A DNA stretch of 55,739 nt. Origin: Escherichia phage vB_EcoS-683R6. Shown one piece after another: positions 2,097 to 38,488 of this stretch. A model generated the notes under the pieces. It ran no database searches and was not told the DNA's origin. It was given only the letters and a program-made list of their open reading frames with translations. Location: sequence record ON470595; one strand, 5' to 3'. The position numbers and the translations under genes were made by a program. How positions within the stretch are numbered: the first letter of the stretch is position 1; every line of letters starts with the position of its first letter.

Positions 2097-3421
2097 CAGA
2101 TACCTCGCGTCCAGGGAAAATTGAGCGCGGTGCGCGCCAGCGTTTCGACGGCAATAGCGAGAACCTGCTCGTCAAAATCGAATTTTTCGTTGTGATGACC
2201 TGCCGCCAGCTGTGTGCCAAACACCACGTAGGAGGCTTGCCCTTGATGTTGCTGCACGCGGGCCATCATTAATGTGGCATCTTCGGAACCCGCAGGCGCT
2301 TCAACACGTTCAATGGCTTGATTGACCCCCGGGACCTGAGCTGCCTGACTTTGCAACCATGCGACCCATTGCGGCGAAGGAGAACTGGCGGTAGCTGCAC
2401 CCATCAGACGAGTTTCAACGCCGACACCATACATGGTTGCTGCGCCCTGAATCGCTTGTTGTGCACGTTCAAAAACATATTGATTAATGACGTCGCTGGC
2501 CCCGCGTGTTTCCACTTTCAGCAACGCTGAGGCGGGAACAACATTACGACCGCTTCCTGCCTGCATAACGCCCACGTTTACTCTGGAAGCGCCTTCGCTG
2601 TGCGGGGCGATTGCATGCAGTGCAAGAGTTGCTTGTGCTGCCGCCAACAAGGCATTGTGACCGTCTTCTGGTTTTGCGCCTGCGTGAGCGGCGGTCCCGG
2701 TGAAGTGCGCGTCAAATTTGGTGGTTGCCATAAAATTATCACTGCCGCACACCACGGTGCCCGCAGGTATGCCAGTGCCAATGTGCACGGCAGTAAAATA
2801 ATCAACATCATCCACTACACCTGCATCGACCATCGCCCGCGCGCCACGCGTACCTTCTTCTGCAGGTTGAAAAATCAGTTTGATGACGCCATGTAGTCCG
2901 GACTCGAACTGTTTAAGGGTATGCGCCAGCCCAAGTCCAATGGCGGTATGTCCATCATGACCACAGGCATGCATCATTCCGGCGTTACATGACGCAAAAC
3001 CGTCGCGGTAGGGGCGATGGCTGACATCCCGTTCTTCACTGAGATCCAGCGCGTCCATATCGACACGGAAAGCCATCACCGGACCGGGGCGACCGGTATC
3101 CAGGGTAGCGACGATGCCAGTGAAACCGCCTTCAAAAGCCGCAATCCATTGTTCTAGCGCACCCTGTTGACGAGCGCGCTCGAATTCGCGTTGTAGAGTG
3201 AATTCATCAGGTAATCCCATCCGGCTACTTTCATTAACTACTTCGCGGCCCAGCGCCAGTGAATAACCGAGCTGGTGCAATTCTTCCGCAACAAGGGTGG
3301 CAGTGCGGAATTCCACCCAGCCAGACTCTGCATAGTGGTGAAAATCACGTCGCCAGTGCGATAATTTTGGGGCAAGCGAATTAATAAATTGATTCAAAGA
3401 CTCCATAACCTTTCCCGTCAT
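2096..3421 (-). CDS. abgA: p-aminobenzoyl-glutamate hydrolase subunit A (M20 peptidase family)
   Basis: 441-aa ORF; metal-binding HxD/HACGHD-type motifs; position upstream of abgB. Confidence 0.9.
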   Translation of the reverse strand: MTGKVMESLNQFINSLAPKLSHWRRDFHHYAESGWVEFRTATLVAEELHQLGYSLALGREVVNESSRMGLPDEFTLQREFERARQQGALEQWIAAFEGGFTGIVATLDTGRPGPVMAFRVDMDALDLSEERDVSHRPYRDGFASCNAGMMHACGHDGHTAIGLGLAHTLKQFESGLHGVIKLIFQPAEEGTRGARAMVDAGVVDDVDYFTAVHIGTGIPAGTVVCGSDNFMATTKFDAHFTGTAAHAGAKPEDGHNALLAAAQATLALHAIAPHSEGASRVNVGVMQAGSGRNVVPASALLKVETRGASDVINQYVFERAQQAIQGAATMYGVGVETRLMGAATASSPSPQWVAWLQSQAAQVPGVNQAIERVEAPAGSEDATLMMARVQQHQGQASYVVFGTQLAAGHHNEKFDFDEQVLAIAVETLARTALNFPWTRGI

Positions 3422-3581
3422 CAGTAAAAAGTGTGACCCGGTTCACGTAGCGATAGTTTTTACTTATCACTAACTGATTTTTCACAGTTTTAACCGTTCA
3501 TAAATTACCCTGACACAATCATCTGCATTAAAGTAGATGCCAGTTTCTTTGGTCTGATAAATAACGGTTATCGGTGGCGTC

Positions 3582-4490
3582 ATGGCTTTTCAGGTAAAAA
3601 TTCATCAAATTCGGGCTTTTGTTGAAGTGGCTCGTCAGGGCAGCATTCGCGGAGCGAGCCGAATGTTGAATATGTCGCAACCGGCACTGAGTAAATCTAT
3701 TCAGGAGCTGGAAGAAGGGTTGGCGGCACAACTCTTTTTTCGCCGTAGTAAAGGCGTGACGTTAACTGATGCCGGCGAAAGTTTTTATCAGCACGCCAGT
3801 CTTATTCTTGAAGAGCTGCGCGCAGCGCAAGAGGATATTCGCCAACGACAAGGGCAACTAGCAGGGCAAATTAATATCGGCATGGGGGCCAGTATTTCCC
3901 GCAGTCTGATGCCAGCTGTCATATCTCGTTTTCATCAGCAGCATCCGCAGGTAAAAGTACGCATTATGGAAGGGCAACTGGTATCGATGATTAATGAATT
4001 GCGCCAGGGGGAACTGGATTTCACCATCAATACCTATTATCAGGGACCCTACGACCACGAATTTACTTTTGAGAAATTACTGGAAAAGCAATTCGCGATC
4101 TTTTGCCGCCCGGGACATCCCGCCATTGGTGCCCGTTCGATCAAACAGTTACTGGACTACAGCTGGACAATGCCGACGCCACACGGCAGCTACTACAAAC
4201 ACTTGAGTGAATTGCTTGACGATCAGGCGCAAACGCCACAGGTCGGCGTAGTCTGCGAGACGTTCTCAGCCTGTATCAGTCTGGTGGCAAAAAGCGATTT
4301 TCTCAGCATACTACCTGAAGAAATGGGCTGCGATCCCTTGCACGGACAGGGGCTGGTGATGTTGCCGGTTAGCGAAATTTTACCGAAAGCGACCTATTAT
4401 TTGATTCAGCGACGTGATAGTCGCCAGACACCACTGACCGCGTCATTAATCACGCAATTTCGGCGAGAATGCGGCTATCTGCAAAGTTAA
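3582..4490 (+). CDS. abgR: LysR-family transcriptional regulator AbgR
   Basis: 302-aa ORF with N-terminal LysR HTH (MSQPALSKSIQELEEGL), divergent from abgA. Confidence 0.9.
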   Translation: MAFQVKIHQIRAFVEVARQGSIRGASRMLNMSQPALSKSIQELEEGLAAQLFFRRSKGVTLTDAGESFYQHASLILEELRAAQEDIRQRQGQLAGQINIGMGASISRSLMPAVISRFHQQHPQVKVRIMEGQLVSMINELRQGELDFTINTYYQGPYDHEFTFEKLLEKQFAIFCRPGHPAIGARSIKQLLDYSWTMPTPHGSYYKHLSELLDDQAQTPQVGVVCETFSACISLVAKSDFLSILPEEMGCDPLHGQGLVMLPVSEILPKATYYLIQRRDSRQTPLTASLITQFRRECGYLQS

Positions 4491-4496
4491 AACTGC

Positions 4497-4593
4497 ATAA
4501 AAAAATAGAGTCTGTCGACATCCGCCAGACTCTACAGTACACACAGCAGTGCATCCTCGTCTTAAATCCGGCCTGGGGTCCTGGTGACCGGTG
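4497..4593 (-). ncRNA. mcaS: small RNA McaS (IsrA)
   Basis: Reverse strand matches remembered McaS 3' half (..GCACUGCUGUGUGUACUGUAGAGUCUGGCGGAUGUCGACAGACUCUAUUUUUUUAUG) with intrinsic terminator hairpin plus U-run; lies between abgR and smrA as in K-12. Ends approximate. Confidence 0.55.
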
Positions 4594-4662
4594 ACAGTGT
4601 TATAACGGTTTTACCCATCCGTTGCCAATTTTCTTCAGTGACAGATTTCACGAAAATATAAG

Positions 4663-5478
4663 TTAAATCATTTGTCTTGTGATTGCATAATCATGCATCG
4701 TTAATCGACGAGTAAATTTACCGGGCGAGTAGCCCGTTCGACGCTTAAACATATTGCCGAACGATTCAGCTGAGGCATAGCCCAGACGATGGGCAATTTT
4801 GGTCAACGAATATCCATCATCAAGAAGCGTCACTGCAGAAATAACGTGCATTTGCTGAACCCAGTGGCGAAATGTTAATCCCGTCTCTTTAACAAATAAG
4901 CGCATGAGTGTACGGCTACTGACGTTAATTTTATCCGCTAGATTATCCAATGTTGGCAGATACCCTTGGTTGTTTAGCAAATTCTCACAAAGCTGCTGTA
5001 GCCGCTCATCATTTGGCCAAGGGAGTTCAAGTGACATTTTCACCCCCATTTTTATTTCCTGAAGTATCAGTGTCTCGAGGGCTGAAAAACGTAACTGTTG
5101 TTTATCTGTGGTACTTTGCGACGGTGGAAGTTGGTTAATTGCAATTAGTAATTCCCTTAACAGGGGTGAAATACCCGTCATGAAGCAAACTTTTCCCAGC
5201 GTTTCACTTTCCGCTTCTGAAACCAGTACGGTTTTTAAAAGTACGTTGCCTGTCGCAACAAACTTATGCGGCATTTGTGGGGGCAGCCAAAGCGCGCTGC
5301 TGGCATGCACTAGCCAGACGCTTTCTCCAGCCCATACACGAACGACTCCTTCAGCCGGGTAAAGCAACTGGGCATAGAGATGTTTATGCCAGGGAACTGT
5401 ACCTCCATTCAGATGTTCCGAATCCAGTCCGATAATGTGATGCCCTGGTGATGCTTTGGGTTGCAGTGTGATTGTCAT
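4663..5478 (-). CDS. AraC/XylS-family transcriptional regulator (cupin-like N-terminus, C-terminal HTH)
   Basis: 271-aa ORF; C-terminal AraC signature (KIAHRLGYASAESFGNMFKRRTGYSPGKF); divergent from the efflux pair. Confidence 0.8.
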   Translation of the reverse strand: MTITLQPKASPGHHIIGLDSEHLNGGTVPWHKHLYAQLLYPAEGVVRVWAGESVWLVHASSALWLPPQMPHKFVATGNVLLKTVLVSEAESETLGKVCFMTGISPLLRELLIAINQLPPSQSTTDKQQLRFSALETLILQEIKMGVKMSLELPWPNDERLQQLCENLLNNQGYLPTLDNLADKINVSSRTLMRLFVKETGLTFRHWVQQMHVISAVTLLDDGYSLTKIAHRLGYASAESFGNMFKRRTGYSPGKFTRRLTMHDYAITRQMI

Positions 5479-5571
5479 TTACAGTAGGTATTTTGTCAGA
5501 AATCATCAAATAAGCCATGTTAAATTTTAAATATGACGAATGCAAGTTTCCGGATATATACGGTGTAAAGA

Positions 5572-6603
5572 GTGATGATAATTTCTAAAAAACAGCTTAT
5601 TGGGGTGGTAGCGATCGGTATTATTTTAGCTGGCGTTGTCTTTTTTATCTGGTGGGTAAGCACAGGAAGATTTATACAGACGACGGATGATGCTTACATT
5701 GGTGGTAATATCACCACGGTGGCAAGTAAAGTTTCTGGTTATATTTCTGCTATAGAGGTGCGCGATAATCAGAGCGTAAAAAAAGGCGATATTATCCTGC
5801 GTCTCGATGATCGGGATTATCGTGCAAATGTCGCCAGGCTTGAGGCAAAAATAAAAAGTAGCAAAGCCAATCTCGAAAGCATTCAAGCCACTATTGCGAT
5901 GCAGCAGTCGATAATTCAAAGTGCCAGTGAAACATGGCAGGCAGTAAAACATGAGGAGCAAAAGCGCCTGCGAGATACTGAACGTTATGAAAAACTCGCA
6001 CAATCAGCGGCAATATCGCAACAAATTATTGATAACGCCAGGTTTGACTACCAGCAGGTCGCAGCAAAGGAGCGCAAAGCCGCGAACGATTTCCTGGTGG
6101 AGAAGCAACGGCTGGCAGTTTTATCTGCTCAGGAAGAAAACGTACGTGCGAGTATCGAAGAAGTTCAGGCCGCTTTGACTCAGGCACTACTGGATCTGGA
6201 ATATACCCTTGTTCGTGCGCCGATTGATGGCATTGTCGCAAACCGCAGCGCCCATACAGGCAGTTGGGTGGAAGGCGGCACATCGTTAGTTTCACTTGTA
6301 CCAGTCAGTGAGTTGTGGGTTGATGCAAATTATAAAGAAAACCAAATAGCGGGAATGAAGCCAGGAATGAAGGCTGAGATCCGTGCTGATATTCTCAAAG
6401 GGGAAGTGTTTCACGGTCACATTGAAAGCCTTTCCCCAGCGACAGGAGCCAGTTTCAGCTTGATTCCGATAGAAAATGCCACTGGCAATTTCACCAAAAT
6501 TGTTCAGCGTGTCCCGGTACGGATTGCATTTGACGACGCAAAGGAATTAAAGCAACTTCTTCGCCCGGGACTGTCCGTCACCGTCAGTGTTGATGAGAGA
6601 TGA
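5572..6603 (+). CDS. HlyD/EmrA-family membrane fusion protein (efflux pump periplasmic adaptor)
   Basis: 343-aa ORF; N-terminal TM helix, coiled-coil middle, HlyD-like beta-barrel C-terminus (LVRAPIDGIV); 4-nt overlap with downstream transporter. Confidence 0.8.
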   Translation: MMIISKKQLIGVVAIGIILAGVVFFIWWVSTGRFIQTTDDAYIGGNITTVASKVSGYISAIEVRDNQSVKKGDIILRLDDRDYRANVARLEAKIKSSKANLESIQATIAMQQSIIQSASETWQAVKHEEQKRLRDTERYEKLAQSAAISQQIIDNARFDYQQVAAKERKAANDFLVEKQRLAVLSAQEENVRASIEEVQAALTQALLDLEYTLVRAPIDGIVANRSAHTGSWVEGGTSLVSLVPVSELWVDANYKENQIAGMKPGMKAEIRADILKGEVFHGHIESLSPATGASFSLIPIENATGNFTKIVQRVPVRIAFDDAKELKQLLRPGLSVTVSVDER

Positions 6604-8114
6604 TGTCTATGCGTAAACATATTGCTTTCGCCAGTATGTGTATGGGATTATTTATTGCTCAGCTTGATATTCAAATTGTATCGTCATCCCTAAATGAAAT
6701 AGGTGGTGGTCTGTCCGCAGGTAAAGACGAAATGGCCTGGCTTCAGACCAGCTATTTAATTGCTGAGATTATTGTTATTCCGCTCTCTGGGTGGCTGTCA
6801 CGGGTATTTTCCACTCGTTGGCTTTTTACTCTATCCGCGGGAATATTTACTTTAATGAGTATCGCGTGTGGACTTGCATGGAATATTCAGATCATGATTT
6901 TGTTTCGTGCTTTACAGGGAGCGGCTGGCGCATCCATGATCCCTTTAGTTTTCACGACGGCGTTTATTTATTACCAGGGTAAAGAGTTGGGGTTGGCTGC
7001 TGCGGTAGTCAGTGCGCTGGCCTCACTGTCACCGACGCTAGGGCCAACTCTGGGGGGCTGGATCACTGATAACCTCGACTGGCGATGGCTATTTTATATC
7101 AATATATTACCTGGCATATATTTAGTTTTGAGTATTCCTTTTCTGGTTAATTTTGATAAACCTGATCTCTCTTTACTGAAAGTTGCTGATTATCCGAGTA
7201 TTATCCTGTTGGCCATGACACTGGGATGTCTGGAATATACTCTTGAAGAAGGAGCGCGCTGGGGATGGCTGGATGATAATACTATTTTGCTGACATCAGT
7301 TCTGGCATTGGTGAGTTTTATTTTATTTGCTGCGCGTACACTTACAATATCCAATCCGATAATGGATCTTCATGCTTTTAAGGATAAAAATTTCACGCTG
7401 GGATGTTTTTTTTCTTTTTCTGGAGGGGTTGGGATATTCTCTACTGTATATTTAATACCTGTGTTTTTGGGGCAGGTTCGCGGATTAAATGCCGAAGAGA
7501 TAGGTTTTGCCGTTTGCACAACAGGTATTTTCCAGTTATTTTCTGTTCCCTTTTACTTCTGGTTAAGTAAAAAAATAAATCTGCGATGGCTGTTGATGGC
7601 GGGGCTGGGTGGATTTGTGTTTTCAATGTATCTTTTTACCCCTATAACCCACGAATGGGGATGGCAGGAGTTACTGTTTCCACAGGCAATTAGAGGGATT
7701 TCGCAGCAGTTTGCGATGGCCCCCATCGTAACATTAACGCTGGGAGGAATTCCAAAAGAACGGCTGAAGTTAGCCTCTGGTGTATTTAATTTAACACGTA
7801 ATCTTGGGGGCGCGATTGGTATTGCCCTGTGTGGCTCTATTCTCAATAATCGAACTAATTTTCATTTTTCGAGAATGGGTGAAAAAATGGTTTCTGTTCC
7901 CCATACGGTGAATGACTTCATTTCCAGAAGTGCTTTGTTTTTTGATCGCAGTGGAAGTGACCAGACATCGGAAATACTGGCTTCAACCAAATTATTGAGT
8001 CAATTGATGCTGAGGGAGGCGCAAACTATGGCATTTTCGGATACCTTTCTGCTAATCAGTGGTCTGTTATTTATCGCATTTTTGTTGGTTCCTGCTATGA
8101 ATAAATCATCCTGA
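6600..8114 (+). CDS. MFS transporter, EmrB/QacA-like (14-TM drug:H+ antiporter family)
   Basis: 504-aa strongly hydrophobic ORF, translationally coupled to the HlyD-like gene. Confidence 0.8.
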   Translation: MMSMRKHIAFASMCMGLFIAQLDIQIVSSSLNEIGGGLSAGKDEMAWLQTSYLIAEIIVIPLSGWLSRVFSTRWLFTLSAGIFTLMSIACGLAWNIQIMILFRALQGAAGASMIPLVFTTAFIYYQGKELGLAAAVVSALASLSPTLGPTLGGWITDNLDWRWLFYINILPGIYLVLSIPFLVNFDKPDLSLLKVADYPSIILLAMTLGCLEYTLEEGARWGWLDDNTILLTSVLALVSFILFAARTLTISNPIMDLHAFKDKNFTLGCFFSFSGGVGIFSTVYLIPVFLGQVRGLNAEEIGFAVCTTGIFQLFSVPFYFWLSKKINLRWLLMAGLGGFVFSMYLFTPITHEWGWQELLFPQAIRGISQQFAMAPIVTLTLGGIPKERLKLASGVFNLTRNLGGAIGIALCGSILNNRTNFHFSRMGEKMVSVPHTVNDFISRSALFFDRSGSDQTSEILASTKLLSQLMLREAQTMAFSDTFLLISGLLFIAFLLVPAMNKSS

Positions 8115-8308
8115 TCGGAGCCTGTGCTGAATTAAACTCGGGCTAAACTGTTCGATACTGCTAACAGGCTAGTATAAAATGCCCCGCCTGCGCAGATACT
8201 CACAGGTATGAAGTAGAGTATTGTTTCAATCTGTGAAGGGAACGATGCAGTAAGTATGAACAATTAACCCGTCTGAATCACGACGTGTGAAGGTGCATAG
8301 GAGGTTAC

Positions 8309-8872
8309 ATGAACCTTGACGACAAATCGCTGTTTCTTGACGCCATGGAAGATGTCCAGCCGCTGAAACGTGCTACAGATGTCCACTGGCATCCAACGCG
8401 TAACCAACGTGCGCCGCAGCGTATCGACACGCTGCAACTTGATAATTTCCTCACCACCGGATTTCTCGACATCATCCCGCTAAGTCAGCCGCTGGAGTTT
8501 CGGCGGGAAGGGTTGCAACATGGGGTGCTGGATAAGCTGCGCAGTGGTAAATATCCGCAACAGGCGAGCCTGAATCTTTTGCGCCAGCCGGTGGAAGAGT
8601 GCCGCAAAATGGTGTTCAGTTTCATTCAACAAGCCCTGGCGGATGGTTTGCGTAATGTGCTGATTATTCATGGTAAAGGGCGGGAAGATAAATCGCATGC
8701 CAATATTGTCCGCAGCTATGTGGCGCGCTGGTTGACCGAATTTGATGATGTCCAGGCATATTGTACCGCGCTACCGCATCATGGCGGCAGCGGGGCGTGT
8801 TACGTCGCACTACGTAAAACGGCACAGGCAAAGCAAGAAAACTGGGAGCGCCACGCTAAGCGCAGTCGTTGA
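8309..8872 (+). CDS. smrA: Smr-domain endonuclease SmrA (YdaL)
   Basis: 187-aa ORF; C-terminal Smr domain (LIIHGKGREDKSHANIVRSYVARWL). Confidence 0.85.
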   Translation: MNLDDKSLFLDAMEDVQPLKRATDVHWHPTRNQRAPQRIDTLQLDNFLTTGFLDIIPLSQPLEFRREGLQHGVLDKLRSGKYPQQASLNLLRQPVEECRKMVFSFIQQALADGLRNVLIIHGKGREDKSHANIVRSYVARWLTEFDDVQAYCTALPHHGGSGACYVALRKTAQAKQENWERHAKRSR

Positions 8873-8892
8873 TCTCGAGACGCATCCGCGGC

Positions 8893-10125
8893 TTATGCCG
8901 CCAGCACGCGGTTGCGTCCATCATTTTTCGCCCGATACAAAGCATCATCAACGCGTTTAAACAGTTCATCGATGCTTTCATTTCCTTCGTGATGCGCCAC
9001 ACCAATGCTGACGGTAAAGCGTGGTAAGCCCGAAATACTCACTTTTGCCACGCTTACGCGGATAGTTTCAGCCAGCGAAAGCGCGGTATCCAGTGGGGTT
9101 CTTGGTAGCAATAAGACAAACTCTTCGCCTCCCCAACGAAACACCAAATCGCCTTTGCGAGCGCAACTTTCGAGAGTGCGGGCGAGGGTGCATAACACCT
9201 CATCACCTTTAGAATGCCCATAGAGATCGTTAATGTGTTTAAAACGATCGGTGTCGATGAGCAATAAGCTGTAATCCTGAGCGATGGCGAGGTGCTGCAT
9301 TTGGCCTGGCTCGGTAATGTGATAAAACTGTCGCCGATTCAGTAATCCGGTCATCGCGTCATGGTGGGCAGCATGTTCCAGCTGCTCCTCCAGCCGTTTT
9401 TGCTCAGTAATATCATGCACAATACATAACATGAGCTTGTCGCCATAAATTTCAATCGGACCGGCATAGGTCTGCACATGACGAGTCGAACCATCCGCCA
9501 GTTTATGAACAAAATTCAAAGGCTTATGGCCACCGGGTAAATGCGAAATTTCATGCATGATAGGCATGACGCGTCGCCCGAGCATATTTATTTCCCAGGT
9601 ATGTTTCTGGCACATCGTTTCATGGTTATAGCCATAGAAATTGAGCGCGGCGAGGTTAGCATCAACGATTTGGCCATCTCGTGAGGGGTCAATCAACAAC
9701 ATTGGTGCAGAGTTAGTCAGAAAAAAGCGCGCATAAAAACCTTGTTTTTTGCGCTGATAATTTGCCGAGCGACTGGCTTTTAAACCCAGCGTTGCCGGTG
9801 CTTCGATACCTTCGAAAATAATCACCGGTTCTGCTTCTGTCAGCTTTCGCAAAACAAGCCGACAACTCAATGCTGTTTCCTCTTCATTGCGCTGAACGGT
9901 GAGGATTTCGATAATATCGTGTTGGTTTTGCAGATCGGAGAGGTATTTCGGCAGTTCTTTTTGTGAGGAGACGGAATAGGGACCGGTTCGTAGCTGACTA
10001 AACGTGAGGTCTTGCATCAACAGTCGCGCCGCGCTGTTGGCATAAATTAACTGTTCCTCAAAGGGCGAAACGATCCAGACAGGACTGGTGAGTAAGTCCA
10101 GGGTATTGAAGTTGTGCGTAATCAT
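8893..10125 (-). CDS. dgcM: diguanylate cyclase DgcM (YdaM), PAS-GGDEF
   Basis: GGEEF motif (RWGGEEFVLLL) and PAS region; start placed at internal Met (MITHNFNTLDL) matching the ~410-aa K-12 protein; the frame is open to 10185. Confidence 0.85.
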   Translation of the reverse strand: MITHNFNTLDLLTSPVWIVSPFEEQLIYANSAARLLMQDLTFSQLRTGPYSVSSQKELPKYLSDLQNQHDIIEILTVQRNEEETALSCRLVLRKLTEAEPVIIFEGIEAPATLGLKASRSANYQRKKQGFYARFFLTNSAPMLLIDPSRDGQIVDANLAALNFYGYNHETMCQKHTWEINMLGRRVMPIMHEISHLPGGHKPLNFVHKLADGSTRHVQTYAGPIEIYGDKLMLCIVHDITEQKRLEEQLEHAAHHDAMTGLLNRRQFYHITEPGQMQHLAIAQDYSLLLIDTDRFKHINDLYGHSKGDEVLCTLARTLESCARKGDLVFRWGGEEFVLLLPRTPLDTALSLAETIRVSVAKVSISGLPRFTVSIGVAHHEGNESIDELFKRVDDALYRAKNDGRNRVLAA

Positions 10126-25870: not shown

Positions 25871-26063
25871 ATAGAACGATGAAGGATGGAAGCTACATAT
25901 TCTCGGTACTAAGATTTATTTTTCTGACACAAAATGACCATTTGGCGTTACATAATCCCAAAAAAACGTATCAAAAATCTCAAAATGCGTTACGATTAGA
26001 GAGTATTTTGATTCTGCGTGCTCATTTTTTGATTGCTGTGGCTTTTTGTTGTGGGAGTGTTGA

Positions 26064-27218
26064 ATGGATTATTTATCAGAAGTGTTAAAAATCATTGAAG
26101 GTGCAACAAAGGCAAATGCTTCGATGGCTAGTAATTATGCTGGGTTGCTGGCAGATAAGCTCGAACAAAAAGGGGAGGTCAAGCAAGCCAGAATGATAAG
26201 AGAAAGGTTGCTTAGAGCTCCCCAGGCGTTGGCAGGAGCTCAAAGGGCTGGAGGTGGGATATCTCTGGGCTCATTACCGGTAGATATTGATAGTCGACTC
26301 AACACTGTTGATGTCAGTTATCCTAAATTAGACAGTTCAGAGATTTTTCTGCCTGCAGCAATCAGTACCCGTGTTGAAGAGTTTATCACTAATGTTCAAC
26401 GTTATGATGAGTTTGTTAAAGCTGATGCAGCATTGCCGAGTCGTATGCTCGTGTATGGAAAGCCAGGAACAGGTAAGACTATGTTATCTAAGTACATCGC
26501 TACCCGCTTAGATTTTCCACTTCTTACAGTGCGTTGCGATACTTTGATTAGTAGTTTATTGGGACAAACCAGCAAAAATCTTAGACAGGTTTTCGATTAT
26601 GTAATGCAGAGGCCATCAGTGCTTTTTTTAGACGAATTTGATGCTTTAGCTGGAGCAAGAGGTAATGAGAGAGATATAGGTGAGCTTCAGCGAGTTGTCA
26701 TTTCACTATTGCAGAATATGGATGCGGCATCAGAGGATACGGTAATTATTGCCTCAACTAACCATGAGCAACTTCTGGATCCTGCAATCTGGAGGCGATT
26801 TAGCTTCAGAATTCCAATGCCTCTGCCTGACATACATCAGAGAGAGTTAATTTGGAAAAATCGTTTAAAGAATATGATATGTAGCGATCTAGATTTAAGT
26901 GATTTATCAAGAAAATCGGAAGGATTATCCGGAGCAATAATTGAACAGGTGAGCTTGGATGCACGTAGGGATGCAGTTATTGAAGGTGCAAGTGTGATAA
27001 ATCACCATAAATTGTATAGGCGTTTGTATCTTGCTCAATCGCTTATGGAAGGTGTAAATTTAAGCACTTACGAAGATGAAATTCGTTGGTTACGTTCTAA
27101 AGATAAAAAATTATTTTCTATCAGAGTTCTTGCTAATTTGTACAAACTTACATCAAGAGTAATTTCAAACATTCTGAAGGAGTCAGGAGCATATGAGCAG
27201 AAGGGGTACACAGTTTAG
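26064..27218 (+). CDS. classical-clade AAA+ ATPase (candidate defence-module component)
   Basis: 384 aa; Walker A GKPGTGKT (about 26458-26481), Walker B VLFLDEFD, sensor-1 ASTN, SRH-like DPAIWRRFSF; AT-rich codon usage unlike flanking phage genes. Confidence 0.8.
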   Translation: MDYLSEVLKIIEGATKANASMASNYAGLLADKLEQKGEVKQARMIRERLLRAPQALAGAQRAGGGISLGSLPVDIDSRLNTVDVSYPKLDSSEIFLPAAISTRVEEFITNVQRYDEFVKADAALPSRMLVYGKPGTGKTMLSKYIATRLDFPLLTVRCDTLISSLLGQTSKNLRQVFDYVMQRPSVLFLDEFDALAGARGNERDIGELQRVVISLLQNMDAASEDTVIIASTNHEQLLDPAIWRRFSFRIPMPLPDIHQRELIWKNRLKNMICSDLDLSDLSRKSEGLSGAIIEQVSLDARRDAVIEGASVINHHKLYRRLYLAQSLMEGVNLSTYEDEIRWLRSKDKKLFSIRVLANLYKLTSRVISNILKESGAYEQKGYTV

Positions 27219-29457
27219 TAACGCAAAAGTTACAAACCCAATGTTAAGAATCCCTTTTTCCAGTAGTGACTTGGGTGCAATAGTAAACGCTGGCGGTGGG
27301 GCAAAGGTATTGGTTGATGTAACAGCCGAATATAGACAAGGGCTAGTAAGAAATTTAACAACCAGTAAACATTATTTAGAATCCAAACTTTCAGAGTACC
27401 CTGGAAGCTTGGGTACTTTGGTTTTCAAATTAAGAGACCAGGGAATAGCCAAAACGCATAGGCCGAACAAAATTGCTCAAGAGGCTGGATTGCAAAATGC
27501 CGGTCATGCCAAAATAGATGAAATGTTGGTTGCTGCTCATGCCGGCTGTTTTGACGTATTAGAGTCAGTCATTTTACATCGGAATATTAAAGCGATTTTG
27601 GCTAATCTAAGCGCGATTGAGCGCATTGAACCTTGGGATGAGAATAGGAAGGTTCCAGGAGGCACTGATGGTTTGTTTGAATCATCAAACATCCTTGTAC
27701 GACTATTTGAGTACACAGGTGAAGATGCAACTTACAACAACTATGAAAACGTTATTTCTATATTAGAACAACACGGAGTTAAATATGATGAGATTAGACA
27801 AAAATGTGGTCTTCCCTTATTAAGGATAATGGATTTATCCCCAAATGATAGATATATATTAGACATTCTCATTGATTACCCGGGTATAAGAACGTTAATT
27901 CCTGAACCAAAATATTCAGCATTCCCGGTTAGTGTAAGTGATTCTGTTGGCATTGAAACAAATAGCTTTCCCGTACCATCAGAAGAATTACCCATTGTTG
28001 CTGTATTTGACACTGGGGTAAGCCCCATCGCGGCAACAATTACTCCTTGGGTAGTGAGTAGGGAAACATACGTAATTCCTCCTGATACGAGTTATGAACA
28101 TGGGACTATGGTGTCTTCATTGATATCAGGCGCTCATTTTTTAAATGACAATCATCCATGGATTCCTGATACAAAATCTAAAATCCATGATGTTTGTGCC
28201 TTAGATGAAAATGGATCTTATATATCAGATTTAATTCTGAGGCTAGCAGATGCTGTAAATAAAAGACCAGATATAAAAGTCTGGAATTTGTCTTTGGGAG
28301 GCGGACCATGTAATGAGCAGACGTTTAGTGATTTTGCGATGGAGTTAGATCGGCTCAGCGATAAATTTGGTATTTTGTTTGTAGTTGCTGCAGGTAATTA
28401 TGTAGATGAACCTATACGTACATGGCCAAATCCTGATCCGCTTGGAGGTGCTGATTTAATTTCCTCTCCTGGAGAGTCAGTCCGAGCACTAACAGTTGGT
28501 TCAGTTTCTCATATGGAAGCTAATGATGCTTTAAGTGAAATTGGAACACCGACACCATATACTCGTCGTGGCCCTGGGCCTGTATTTACTCCAAAGCCAG
28601 ATATAATCCATGCTGGCGGTGGGGTTCATAGACCTTGGAATGTAGGAGCAAGCAGTTTAAAGGTCGTAGGGCCAGATAATAGGCTTTGCTCTAATTTTGG
28701 TACTAGTTTTGCTGCTCCAATTGTGGCAAGTTTAGCTGCGCATACATGGCAGAGAATAGCCACTAATACAGACTTTAATGTTTCACCATCATTGATTAAA
28801 GCATTATTAATTCATTCCGCTCAATTATCTTCTCCTGATTACTCGCCAAGTGAAAGACGCTATTTGGGAGCGGGAATTCCTAATGAAGTTATTGAGACCT
28901 TATATGATAGTGATGATAGGTTTACTCTGATTTTCCAAACATTCTTGGTTCCTGGGGTGAGGTGGAGAAAGGATAACTATCCCATACCATCGGCACTTAT
29001 TCAAAATGGAAAATTTAAAGGTGAGATTGTAATTACTGCTGCATATGCACCACCACTGAACCCTAATGCCGGCAGTGAATATGTTCGCGCGAACGTAGAG
29101 CTAAGTTTTGGCTTAATTGAGAATAATACTATAAAAGGAAAAGTGCCTATGGAAGGAGAAAACGGTCAATCTGGATATGAGAGAGCTCAAATTGAGCATG
29201 GTGGAAAGTGGTCACCAGTAAAAATTCATCGCAAGGCATTTAATAAAGGAATTACTTCGGGTAACTGGGCTCTTCAGGCTAAAACAACGTTGAGAGCGAA
29301 TGAACCGGCCTTAATGGAGCCTTTACCTGTAACTATTGTAGTAACTTTAAAATCATTAGATGGAAACACACAAGTTTATGCTGATGGCGTAAGAGCTTTA
29401 AATGCTAATAACTGGGCTCACTATCCATTGCCTGCTCGTGTGCCAGTTTCCGTATAA
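27193..29457 (+). CDS. subtilisin-like (S8 family) serine protease, multi-domain (candidate defence-module effector)
   Basis: 754 aa; catalytic triad in D-H-S order: AVFDTGVS (about 28006-28029), YEHGTMVSS (about 28093-28119), GTSFAAPIVA (about 28699-28728); overlaps the ATPase ORF by 26 nt (alternative ATG at 27238). Confidence 0.8.
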   Translation: MSRRGTQFSNAKVTNPMLRIPFSSSDLGAIVNAGGGAKVLVDVTAEYRQGLVRNLTTSKHYLESKLSEYPGSLGTLVFKLRDQGIAKTHRPNKIAQEAGLQNAGHAKIDEMLVAAHAGCFDVLESVILHRNIKAILANLSAIERIEPWDENRKVPGGTDGLFESSNILVRLFEYTGEDATYNNYENVISILEQHGVKYDEIRQKCGLPLLRIMDLSPNDRYILDILIDYPGIRTLIPEPKYSAFPVSVSDSVGIETNSFPVPSEELPIVAVFDTGVSPIAATITPWVVSRETYVIPPDTSYEHGTMVSSLISGAHFLNDNHPWIPDTKSKIHDVCALDENGSYISDLILRLADAVNKRPDIKVWNLSLGGGPCNEQTFSDFAMELDRLSDKFGILFVVAAGNYVDEPIRTWPNPDPLGGADLISSPGESVRALTVGSVSHMEANDALSEIGTPTPYTRRGPGPVFTPKPDIIHAGGGVHRPWNVGASSLKVVGPDNRLCSNFGTSFAAPIVASLAAHTWQRIATNTDFNVSPSLIKALLIHSAQLSSPDYSPSERRYLGAGIPNEVIETLYDSDDRFTLIFQTFLVPGVRWRKDNYPIPSALIQNGKFKGEIVITAAYAPPLNPNAGSEYVRANVELSFGLIENNTIKGKVPMEGENGQSGYERAQIEHGGKWSPVKIHRKAFNKGITSGNWALQAKTTLRANEPALMEPLPVTIVVTLKSLDGNTQVYADGVRALNANNWAHYPLPARVPVSV

Positions 29458-29471
29458 CAACTATATAAATC

Positions 29472-37393: not shown

Positions 37394-38488
37394 ATGAGCA
37401 GACCGGACTGGGGGGCGTTGCAGCAGGAGTATATTGCTGAATACACCCGCTCCGGTATATCTCCGGTGGCATGGTGTGAAGCAAGGGGACTGAATTACGC
37501 AACAGCCCGTCGTTACATCAAAAAAACTCCGAAAAATGCGCAGACAGAAATGTGCAAAACTGCGCAAAAAAGTGCGCAGAAAAAATCTGCGCAGACTGCA
37601 CAAAAGCGGAACGAAAAATCTCAGGAAAAAAAGCCAGTATTCGATGCGGGCCTGAATGAGGGCGACGCGGAGGAATTTTCGTTCTGTCCCGATGAATTCG
37701 GCATTTCTGACCAGCAGGCTAAGTTTGCGATGCTTGTTGCTCAGGGTAAAAAGCCGACAGAGGCGTACCGACTAGCCGGTTATGAGGGGCAAGGTGCGAC
37801 AGCTAACAGCAACGCCAGTCGTATGCTTAGAAATGCCAGGGTTTTTCGCGCTATCAGCTACTTCCGCAATCAGTACCAGAAACGCTATACCGCAGACCTG
37901 GATTTACTAGTGAGTCAGTTGATGGCTATTGTCCTGGCCGACCCCAATCAGCTTGCACAATTTCGCCGTGTTAACTGCCGTTATTGCTGGGGCGAGAATC
38001 ATCTCTACCAGTGGCGCGATATAGCAGAATTCGACAAGGCAGCGGCGCAGGCTTCCAGAGATGGCAAACCCGAACCGGAATATGGAGGCCTCGGCTTTGT
38101 TGATAACGCCATACCCAATCCGGACTGCCCGAAGTGCTGCGGTGAGGGAACGGGACAGCTTTATATGGCTGATACCACTCTGCTTGATGGGGATGCGCGG
38201 CAATTATATGCAGGGGCAAAATTCGGAAAATTCGGCGTTGAGATCCTGCTGGAGGATAAGGCTGCCGCCCGGCGTGAATTGTTGCGTTTGCTTTCTGCTG
38301 GCGGGGATTTATGTGCAGATAAGCGGCTACAGGAACTGGAAATTGAACGGCGCAGAATGGAAAACCAGAAGCTGCGCAAAGAGATCGAAACGGTGGAAGA
38401 TAATGAACATCCCCAGCCTGTGGCGATCAATATTAATGTGGTTGATGCCAGAGTAAGGAGTGATGAAGATGATCTCTCCGACGCTTAA
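37394..38488 (+). CDS. putative terminase small subunit (DNA-recognition component)
   Basis: 364 aa; N-terminal HTH-like region; precedes and overlaps the large terminase gene. Confidence 0.55.
   Translation: MSRPDWGALQQEYIAEYTRSGISPVAWCEARGLNYATARRYIKKTPKNAQTEMCKTAQKSAQKKSAQTAQKRNEKSQEKKPVFDAGLNEGDAEEFSFCPDEFGISDQQAKFAMLVAQGKKPTEAYRLAGYEGQGATANSNASRMLRNARVFRAISYFRNQYQKRYTADLDLLVSQLMAIVLADPNQLAQFRRVNCRYCWGENHLYQWRDIAEFDKAAAQASRDGKPEPEYGGLGFVDNAIPNPDCPKCCGEGTGQLYMADTTLLDGDARQLYAGAKFGKFGVEILLEDKAAARRELLRLLSAGGDLCADKRLQELEIERRRMENQKLRKEIETVEDNEHPQPVAININVVDARVRSDEDDLSDA

Follow-up and report, generated by a model that had tools for sequence, protein, structure and literature searches.

Tripartite exporters such as EmrKY, VceAB and FarAB are formed by a permease of the DHA2 family within the major facilitator superfamily (MFS), a periplasmic adaptor and an outer-membrane channel. 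Their substrates include bile salts, uncouplers and fatty acids, and tripartite MFS pumps help to make the cell intrinsically tolerant to bile, fatty acids, uncouplers and certain antibiotics. In EmrAB-TolC from E. coli K-12 (emrA, b2685; emrB, b2686) the adaptor gene is followed by the gene for the DHA2 permease, an order that is also found at the locus described here. This locus lies in a stretch of 55,739 nucleotides from sequence record ON470595 (Escherichia phage vB_EcoS-683R6; the whole stretch is referred to as the window), in which a block of 3,600 bp between mcaS and smrA carries the gene of an AraC/XylS-family regulator and, divergently, the genes of an adaptor and of a DHA2 pump. 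The comparison with other genomes suggests that this block is probably a horizontally acquired three-gene accessory efflux module. A literature search found no published description of the module or of its insertion. The features of the block, with positions in the window, are the following:

4699 to 8298: inserted block, 3,600 bp, formed by the regulator core, the control region, the adaptor, the pump and a 184-bp tail; delimited by junction mapping against a K-12-type genome
4663 to 5478, minus strand: AraC/XylS-family regulator, 271 residues, with an N-terminal cupin/AraC_binding domain and a C-terminal double helix-turn-helix (HTH), according to Pfam
4663 to 4698, minus strand: shared 36 bp outside the block, which in carriers encode the last 11 residues of the regulator (MHDYAITRQMI) and its stop codon
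5479 to 5571: putative divergent control region, 93 bp, between the regulator and the adaptor-pump operon
5572 to 6603, plus strand: periplasmic adaptor (membrane fusion protein), with one N-terminal transmembrane (TM) anchor at residues 9-27
6600 to 8114, plus strand: DHA2-family MFS efflux permease (the pump), 504 residues, intact
8115 to 8298: non-coding tail of the block, 184 bp, now directly upstream of smrA

The bounds of the block were defined by mapping its junctions to the K-12-type genome L001, whose alignment covers only positions 3400-4698 and 8299-9000 of the window, with 111 unrelated bp in between; these 111 bp of K-12-type genomes show no similarity to the block. The right junction (8298|8299) lies 10 nt before the ATG of smrA. 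Both junctions are collinear in the ST131-type and Escherichia ruysiae loci, and are thus common to them. An earlier note, made from the letters of this DNA alone, had stated that in K-12 abgR and mcaS are directly followed by smrA, and had proposed that a block of roughly 3.5 kb intervenes here, with an AraC-family regulator on the reverse strand and, divergently, a HlyD-type adaptor and an MFS pump whose genes overlap by 4 nt. This order is that of MG1655, where abgR (b1339), mcaS (b4426) and smrA (b1340) are adjacent with nothing between them; the three genes of the block are absent from the K-12-type genomes, and in the window the three open reading frames (ORFs) are found where they had been placed. 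The existence of the block was thus borne out, but its limits had to be redrawn, since 4663-8114, the positions first given for it, are the bounds of the ORFs.

The distribution of the block was studied in 5,426 complete E. coli genomes, a comparison that agrees with the strain variability suggested in the earlier note. The K-12-type junction was found in 3,839 of them, and the block was at least partly present in 1,458 (approx. 27%), with 1,317 genomes retaining at least 80% of it. In every carrier it is a single-copy element that is always located at the mcaS-smrA site; 1,456 of the 1,458 copies are on records labelled as chromosome, and identity to the window reaches 99% or more in 1,408 copies. 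The greater AT content relative to abgR and smrA that had been noticed earlier was also confirmed. The block has a GC content of 0.441 (44%) and a GC content at third codon positions (GC3) of 0.39-0.43, clearly below those of abgR (0.495 and 0.508, respectively) and smrA (0.535 and 0.564), and the GC3 of the six flanking core genes ranges from 0.50 to 0.56. It ranks 44th in AT-richness among 261 segments of 3.6 kb; other segments of the window surpass it because a Rac-type prophage fills the rest.

The polarity of the change was determined using Salmonella, Citrobacter koseri and Citrobacter rodentium as outgroups, which show the order fnr-ogt-smrA and lack both the abg genes and the block. 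About 82 nt of the region upstream of smrA in these species can be aligned to the K-12-type 111 bp; with the 184 bp of the carriers (8115-8298), in contrast, the alignment starts only 10 nt before the smrA ATG. Given that the K-12-type 111 bp are homologous to the outgroup sequence upstream of smrA and the 184 bp of the carriers are not, the block-less state is ancestral; hence, the block is a derived insertion that replaced the native upstream region of smrA. Since all the carriers examined share their junctions, the sequences indicate a single insertion event. The coincidence between the boundary of the 36 bp and the stop codon of the orthologous regulators was also considered as proof of insertion and was set aside as non-discriminating, given that homology ends at the stop under either model. 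Neither an integrase, a transposase, an insertion sequence (IS) nor terminal repeats were detected at 4699/8298, and the block contains only three ORFs. Consequently, of the strain-variable efflux or resistance island that the earlier note had in mind, strain variability and deviating composition are the only island traits that stand, and the classical marks of a genomic island are not present; the "resistance" part of the label is unproven.

Outside Escherichia, the nearest relatives of the pump are proteins of 505 residues, 80-83% identical, from Citrobacter, Kluyvera, Hafnia, Pluralibacter, Salmonella and other genera. One identical 505-residue pump (P0014) is found together with the same AraC-type regulator (262 residues) and adaptor (343/344 residues) in at least three unrelated contexts in other Enterobacteriaceae, from which it follows that the triad moves as a unit. 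Its context differs in each host, and no conserved neighbours that could hint at the substrate were found. Within Escherichia, the rate of synonymous substitutions (dS) between the window and the ST131-type copies is 0.005-0.03 for the block and 0.06-0.10 for the flanks in most comparisons, the exception being carrier L005, in which the flanks are as similar as the block; between the window and E. ruysiae, which carries the block at the same site with identical junctions, the corresponding values are 0.08-0.16 and 0.34-0.73. Because the dS of the block is lower than that of the flanks while the junctions are identical, it is probable that the block, after a single insertion, spread among Escherichia lineages by homologous recombination in the flanking core DNA.

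The arrangement seen in the window, with an intact abgR adjoining the block, occurs in only 314 genomes. Most of the remaining carriers, ST131 and APEC O1 among them, retain only remnants of the abg operon, and homology with the window resumes at 4277. These ST131-type and APEC O1-type carriers and E. ruysiae, as noticed in L003, L005, L006 and L008, are devoid of abgT, abgB, abgA and most of abgR, with this position as a common breakpoint, and in these abg-deleted carriers the segment with the 3' end of abgR and mcaS is only 84-86% identical to the window. In two representatives of the GTDB collection labelled Shigella flexneri SFBU1023 (L009) and E. coli ECMA0423 (L010), the block shares 99% identity with the window; their smrA, dgcM and zntB genes are 86-90% identical to those of any E. 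coli examined and 75-83% to those of E. ruysiae, with indels. These divergent flanks could represent an imported divergent allele or a problem of assembly quality. A tblastn search of PLSDB for plasmid carriage gave only mislabelled or doubtful E. coli records and relatives of at most 63% identity on megaplasmids of soil bacteria. Among the few copies of the block recorded on "plasmids" (including H95 and H96), one record is 4.9 Mb long and is clearly a mislabelled chromosome, and a 252-kb E. coli "plasmid" record matches the block in five pieces.

A relevant question about the module is whether its genes are intact. In all 15 of the carriers sampled, RefSeq, which relies on the NCBI annotation pipeline (PGAP), marks the pump gene as a "frameshifted" pseudogene. 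Nevertheless, direct translation revealed an intact pump ORF of 504 residues in the window and in 11 of the 12 full-coverage carriers, and in these all three ORFs are intact. The pump ORF aligns over its full length and without gaps to the 505-residue ortholog of Citrobacter (82% identity), and a frameshift in the pump gene of the window was thus discarded. The PGAP feature has 1,456 nt, from 6600 to 8055, and its end is the exact stop of the Shigella-type allele, in which a 1-nt deletion near window position 8040 gives a protein of 484 residues that has lost the last TM helix. The best explanation for the flag is an artefact caused by this truncated Shigella-type reference protein. The ratio dN/dS of the block genes is 0-0.27; most carriers have intact copies of the genes, which are under purifying selection. 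Real lesions occur nonetheless: AF34 has an IS1 insertion in the block, a class of carriers with 95% coverage has a 199-bp deletion affecting the adaptor and the pump, larger deletions in some carriers leave 49% or 17% of the block, and the Shigella-type loci show a 1.7-kb insertion in the adaptor gene in addition to the 1-nt deletion in the pump gene. In ETEC6334, a run of seven T residues instead of eight at 7399-7406 shortens the pump ORF to 284 residues, either by true slippage or through an error in sequencing.

Two alternative histories of the block have to be considered. According to one of them, the block would be ancestral to Escherichia and the K-12-type state would have arisen by deletion. 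That E. ruysiae as well as ST131-type and APEC O1-type genomes have it at one and the same site is compatible with this idea, and the 36 bp that K-12-type genomes share with the carriers, where they encode the C-terminus of the regulator, resembled at first a remnant of the gene. This interpretation of the 36 bp was dropped after the comparison of the sequences upstream of smrA in the outgroups, given that a deletion cannot create the homology of the K-12-type 111 bp to the corresponding region of Salmonella and Citrobacter; besides, the 36 bp lie past the end of the orthologous regulators, the dS of the block is 3-5 times below that of the flanks in most comparisons, and the composition of the block looks foreign. 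We consider an ancestral block very improbable. The other history regards the module as a decaying, non-functional relic, as the pseudogene flag implies. The flag in every sampled RefSeq genome, the real lesions of some lineages and the absence of the block from 71% of the genomes could be read in this way; however, the intact ORFs without gaps relative to the 505-residue orthologs, the end of the PGAP feature at the stop of the truncated Shigella-type protein (window 8055) and dN/dS values of 0.27 or less make general decay improbable.

The function of the module has been approached through the families of its proteins. The pump matches TIGR00711 with 405.2 bits (cut-off 230.2, E 4e-121), from residue 9 to 496 on positions 3-480 of a profile of 485, and Pfam MFS_1 with 138.7 bits. 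This full-length match above the curated cut-off places it in the DHA2/EmrB subfamily and answers the search against characterised MFS families that the earlier note had advised. In a crude Kyte-Doolittle scan the number of peaks varied from 10 to 17 with the threshold chosen, and the scan was uninformative for the 14 TM segments expected for this type of transporter; the end-to-end alignment with EmrB lends indirect support to a predicted 14-segment topology. The antiporter motif C (GPxxGG in TM5) is represented by LGPTLGGW at residues 146-153, aligned with CGPILGGY of EmrB. The adaptor scores 132.6 bits with TIGR01730 (cut-off 94.9) and is above the cut-offs of Pfam HlyD_D23, HlyD_3, Biotin_lipoyl_2 and CusB_dom_1; its lipoyl, hairpin and beta-barrel domains, together with the family model, assign it to the adaptor superfamily. 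On the other hand, the specific models were not reached: the pump obtained 219.1 bits with the EmrB model NF000391 (cut-off 925), and the adaptor 267.7 bits with the EmrA/EmrK model TIGR00998 (390.8 required) and 208 bits with the EmrA equivalog NF011715 (563 required). The term EmrAB-like used in the earlier note is adequate only for the architecture and for the DHA2 family (28% identity to EmrB and 31% to EmrA, with scores under the NCBIfam cut-offs), and the pump and the adaptor are distant paralogs, not orthologs, of EmrB and EmrA.

The adaptor gene can start at the GTG in 5572 (343 residues) or at the ATG in 5575 used by PGAP (342 residues). Its stop codon (6601-6603) overlaps the start codon of the pump gene (6600-6602) as ATGA, and by this overlap of 4 nt both genes are translationally coupled. 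Adaptor-MFS fusion proteins of 866-867 residues exist among relatives of 61-62% identity, which supports a physical partnership between adaptor and pump. No gene for an outer-membrane factor was found in the block or beside any relative examined. By analogy with EmrAB-TolC, the pump and the adaptor would assemble with the chromosomally encoded TolC into a tripartite proton-driven exporter; the use of TolC is suggested by that resemblance. The likely substrates would be amphipathic or hydrophobic toxic compounds, e.g., uncouplers, bile salts or fatty acids.

The regulator matches Pfam HTH_18 (78 bits, cut-off 33.6), AraC_binding (34.9, cut-off 21.1) and Cupin_2 (29.7, cut-off 27.2); a C-terminal double HTH and an N-terminal AraC-type/cupin sensor domain identify it as a member of the AraC/XylS family. 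For all three proteins the assignment to a family greatly exceeds chance level. It did not reach the cut-off of any of the named NCBIfam equivalogs (AraC, RhaS, MarA, Rob and others). It is 78-79% identical to the 262-residue regulators of the Citrobacter/Kluyvera-type triads, which stop at the residue aligned with residue 260 of the E. coli protein. At its left end, the E. coli gene has lost its own stop codon and has a 1-nt deletion a few codons earlier; its ORF now terminates in sequence that is outside the block and common to the K-12-type genomes, which keep 4663-4698 in a diverged form. The 93-bp region between the divergent genes shares conserved stretches with the Citrobacter-type triads, e.g., ATCATCAnAnAAGnCATGnTAAnTTTT, TGCAA and ACGGT, and promoter-like hexamers are present at 5478-5506 on the plus strand, which is consistent with a role of 5479-5571 in transcriptional control. 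Most simply, this AraC-cupin protein would be an inducer-sensing activator of the operon: it would bind a small-molecule inducer, probably the substrate of the pump or a related compound, and would then activate the divergent adaptor-pump promoter.

Other functional readings have been weighed against that of a detoxifying exporter. Some MFS-plus-adaptor systems are known to have a narrow range of physiological substrates, and the pump might export an endogenous or niche-specific metabolite or signal, sensed by the AraC-type regulator, instead of xenobiotics or multiple drugs. The presence of an AraC-cupin regulator that senses a ligand points to a specific inducer; relatives of 62% identity share their operon with an HxlR regulator and a ketoacyl synthase, a hint of specialised roles in the wider clade; and the NCBIfam drug-resistance models are all far from being reached, given that the "exception" models for acquired resistance (QacA/B, Tet, Lmr, FexA/B, QepA and others) gave 44-125 bits against cut-offs of 800-1075. 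Nevertheless, biosynthetic or catabolic genes do not travel with the triad, and its neighbours differ in each context, as expected for a self-contained detoxification module; a dedicated metabolite exporter is for these reasons regarded as unlikely, though worth keeping in view. The name "HlyD family secretion protein" given to the adaptor, along with weak matches to bacteriocin accessory models and, at 85.5 bits, to TIGR01843, evokes an accessory of type I secretion or bacteriocin export. This role is scarcely credible, since TIGR01843 requires 208.65 bits, the other weak matches are likewise under their cut-offs, and the partner of the adaptor is an MFS permease and not an ABC transporter, with no substrate gene at hand. 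A search of the anti-phage defence families of PADLOC gave no matches for the module.

Several considerations weigh against an acquired and functional efflux module. The pump is under the EmrB cut-off and the adaptor under that of EmrA/EmrK; what is proposed about substrate, inducer, expression and TolC dependence is drawn from distant paralogs with 28-31% identity. The block lacks mobility genes or terminal repeats that could explain its insertion, and its polarity is drawn from outgroups of the genera Salmonella and Citrobacter. The dN/dS of the block genes is somewhat above that of the flanking genes, and the module is dispensable, as follows from the real lesions that several lineages carry. 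Finally, H-NS often silences AT-rich DNA of foreign origin, and the module may be unexpressed under laboratory conditions.

The insertion may also have consequences for the genes at both sides of the block, whose positions are:

3582-4490: abgR, left flank
4497 to 4592, minus strand: mcaS small RNA (sRNA), left flank, outside the block (Rfam RF00115, 113.5 bits)
8309 to 8872, plus strand: smrA, right flank, outside the block (NCBIfam SmrA equivalog, 253 bits, cut-off 180)

McaS is an sRNA involved in biofilm formation and motility, and SmrA is a DNA endonuclease; dgcM is also among the flanking genes. Carriers have lost the sequence upstream of smrA that is conserved in Salmonella and Citrobacter (TTAyTGGAAA...GTAAaCCGTTGTyGG...GGTTATgATA) and retain 10 nt of native sequence before its ATG. 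No plus-strand terminator was predicted between the pump gene and smrA; hence, with the native upstream region gone, smrA may be co-transcribed with the pump. The 184-bp tail contains a promoter-like site at 8152-8180 and shows no significant fold (z -0.5). On the left side, mcaS is the only Rfam match, with no RNA elements detected inside the block, and intact copies of it are likewise present in carriers of the ST131, E. ruysiae and Shigella types. The regulator gene and mcaS share a strand, with the stop of the former 70 nt upstream of the latter, and no terminator was predicted between them; read-through or promoter interference from the regulator gene at mcaS is possible. A CRP-like site, cGTGAaatctgTCACt, was noticed in the interval between the regulator and mcaS (4592-4698). 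A bolder proposal is that the insertion rewired its neighbours, so that smrA would be co-transcribed with the pump under an AraC-type sensor, the regulator gene would read into the mcaS promoter and the pump would add, unnoticed until now, to the intrinsic resistance or the niche fitness of extraintestinal pathogenic lineages; as a whole, we regard it as rather doubtful.

Beyond this locus, the Rac-type prophage of the window extends from about 14330 to at least 49240, beside ttcA, and includes intR, xisR, ralR, recET, kilR, racR, ydaSTUV and P22-like capsid and tail genes. Nowhere is the window more AT-rich than at an IteA/IteS anti-phage pair within it, at about 26060-29460. In KTa008, a near-identical genome, an IS200/IS605 element is inserted in the gene of the small terminase subunit, near window position 38100; the window does not have this insertion.

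About a quarter of E. coli genomes, among them prominent extraintestinal pathogens (ST131, APEC O1) and not laboratory K-12, thus have an additional sensor-controlled pump, which is a reasonable candidate for lineage-specific differences in fitness or tolerance. If the pseudogene flag holds generally, pangenome, genome-wide association and resistome analyses based on RefSeq proteins would miss this pump. The locus is also a clean case in which an insertion replaces the promoter of its neighbour and lengthens the frame of the incoming regulator past the end of its orthologs. The module is an ordinary accessory, regulated MFS tripartite efflux system, and nothing in these points is conceptually new.

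Its closest counterparts are the orthologous AraC-adaptor-DHA2 triads of Citrobacter, Kluyvera, Hafnia, Pluralibacter and Salmonella (subsp. salamae among others), which share the order and orientation of the genes, approx. 82% identity in the pump, 78-79% in the regulator, and the motifs of the control region. They differ in that they occupy unrelated chromosomal sites, their regulator has 262 residues without the 11-residue tail of E. coli, and their GC content is about 48% versus 44%; these triads are uncharacterised as well, and thus provide no functional information. More distant is the HxlR-adaptor-DHA2-ketoacyl synthase operon of Raoultella, Kosakonia and Enterobacter, which belongs to the same wider clade and also has an adjacent adaptor and DHA2 pump (approx. 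62% identity in the pump); however, it has an HxlR regulator and an extra gene for a FabB/F-like ketoacyl synthase, and its genes are not orthologs of those of the E. coli block. In the Raoultella/Kosakonia-type loci L039, L040 and L041, the pump beside a spare ketoacyl synthase could, speculatively, constitute a self-contained resistance to inhibitors of ketoacyl synthases.

EmrAB-TolC is the characterised system nearest to the module, and the comparison with it also shows likenesses and differences. In both cases the adaptor has an N-terminal membrane anchor, and neither locus has its own gene for an outer-membrane factor. Residues 12-497 of the pump align with residues 18-495 of EmrB (best PDB match 8zal, E 7e-56), and residues 16-340 of the adaptor with residues 31-346 of EmrA (best PDB match 8zar, E 1e-43). 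The identity is nonetheless only 28% over 493 residues for the pump and 31% for the adaptor, which is 48 residues shorter than EmrA. The control of the genes is also different: here the regulator is a divergently encoded AraC/XylS-cupin protein, whereas emrAB has the MarR-type MprA/EmrR upstream and in the same direction, and the regulators of EmrKY (EvgAS), VceAB (the TetR-type VceR) and FarAB (the MarR-type FarR) differ from it as well. Lastly, the module described here is accessory and AT-rich, in contrast with emrAB, which is part of the core genome.

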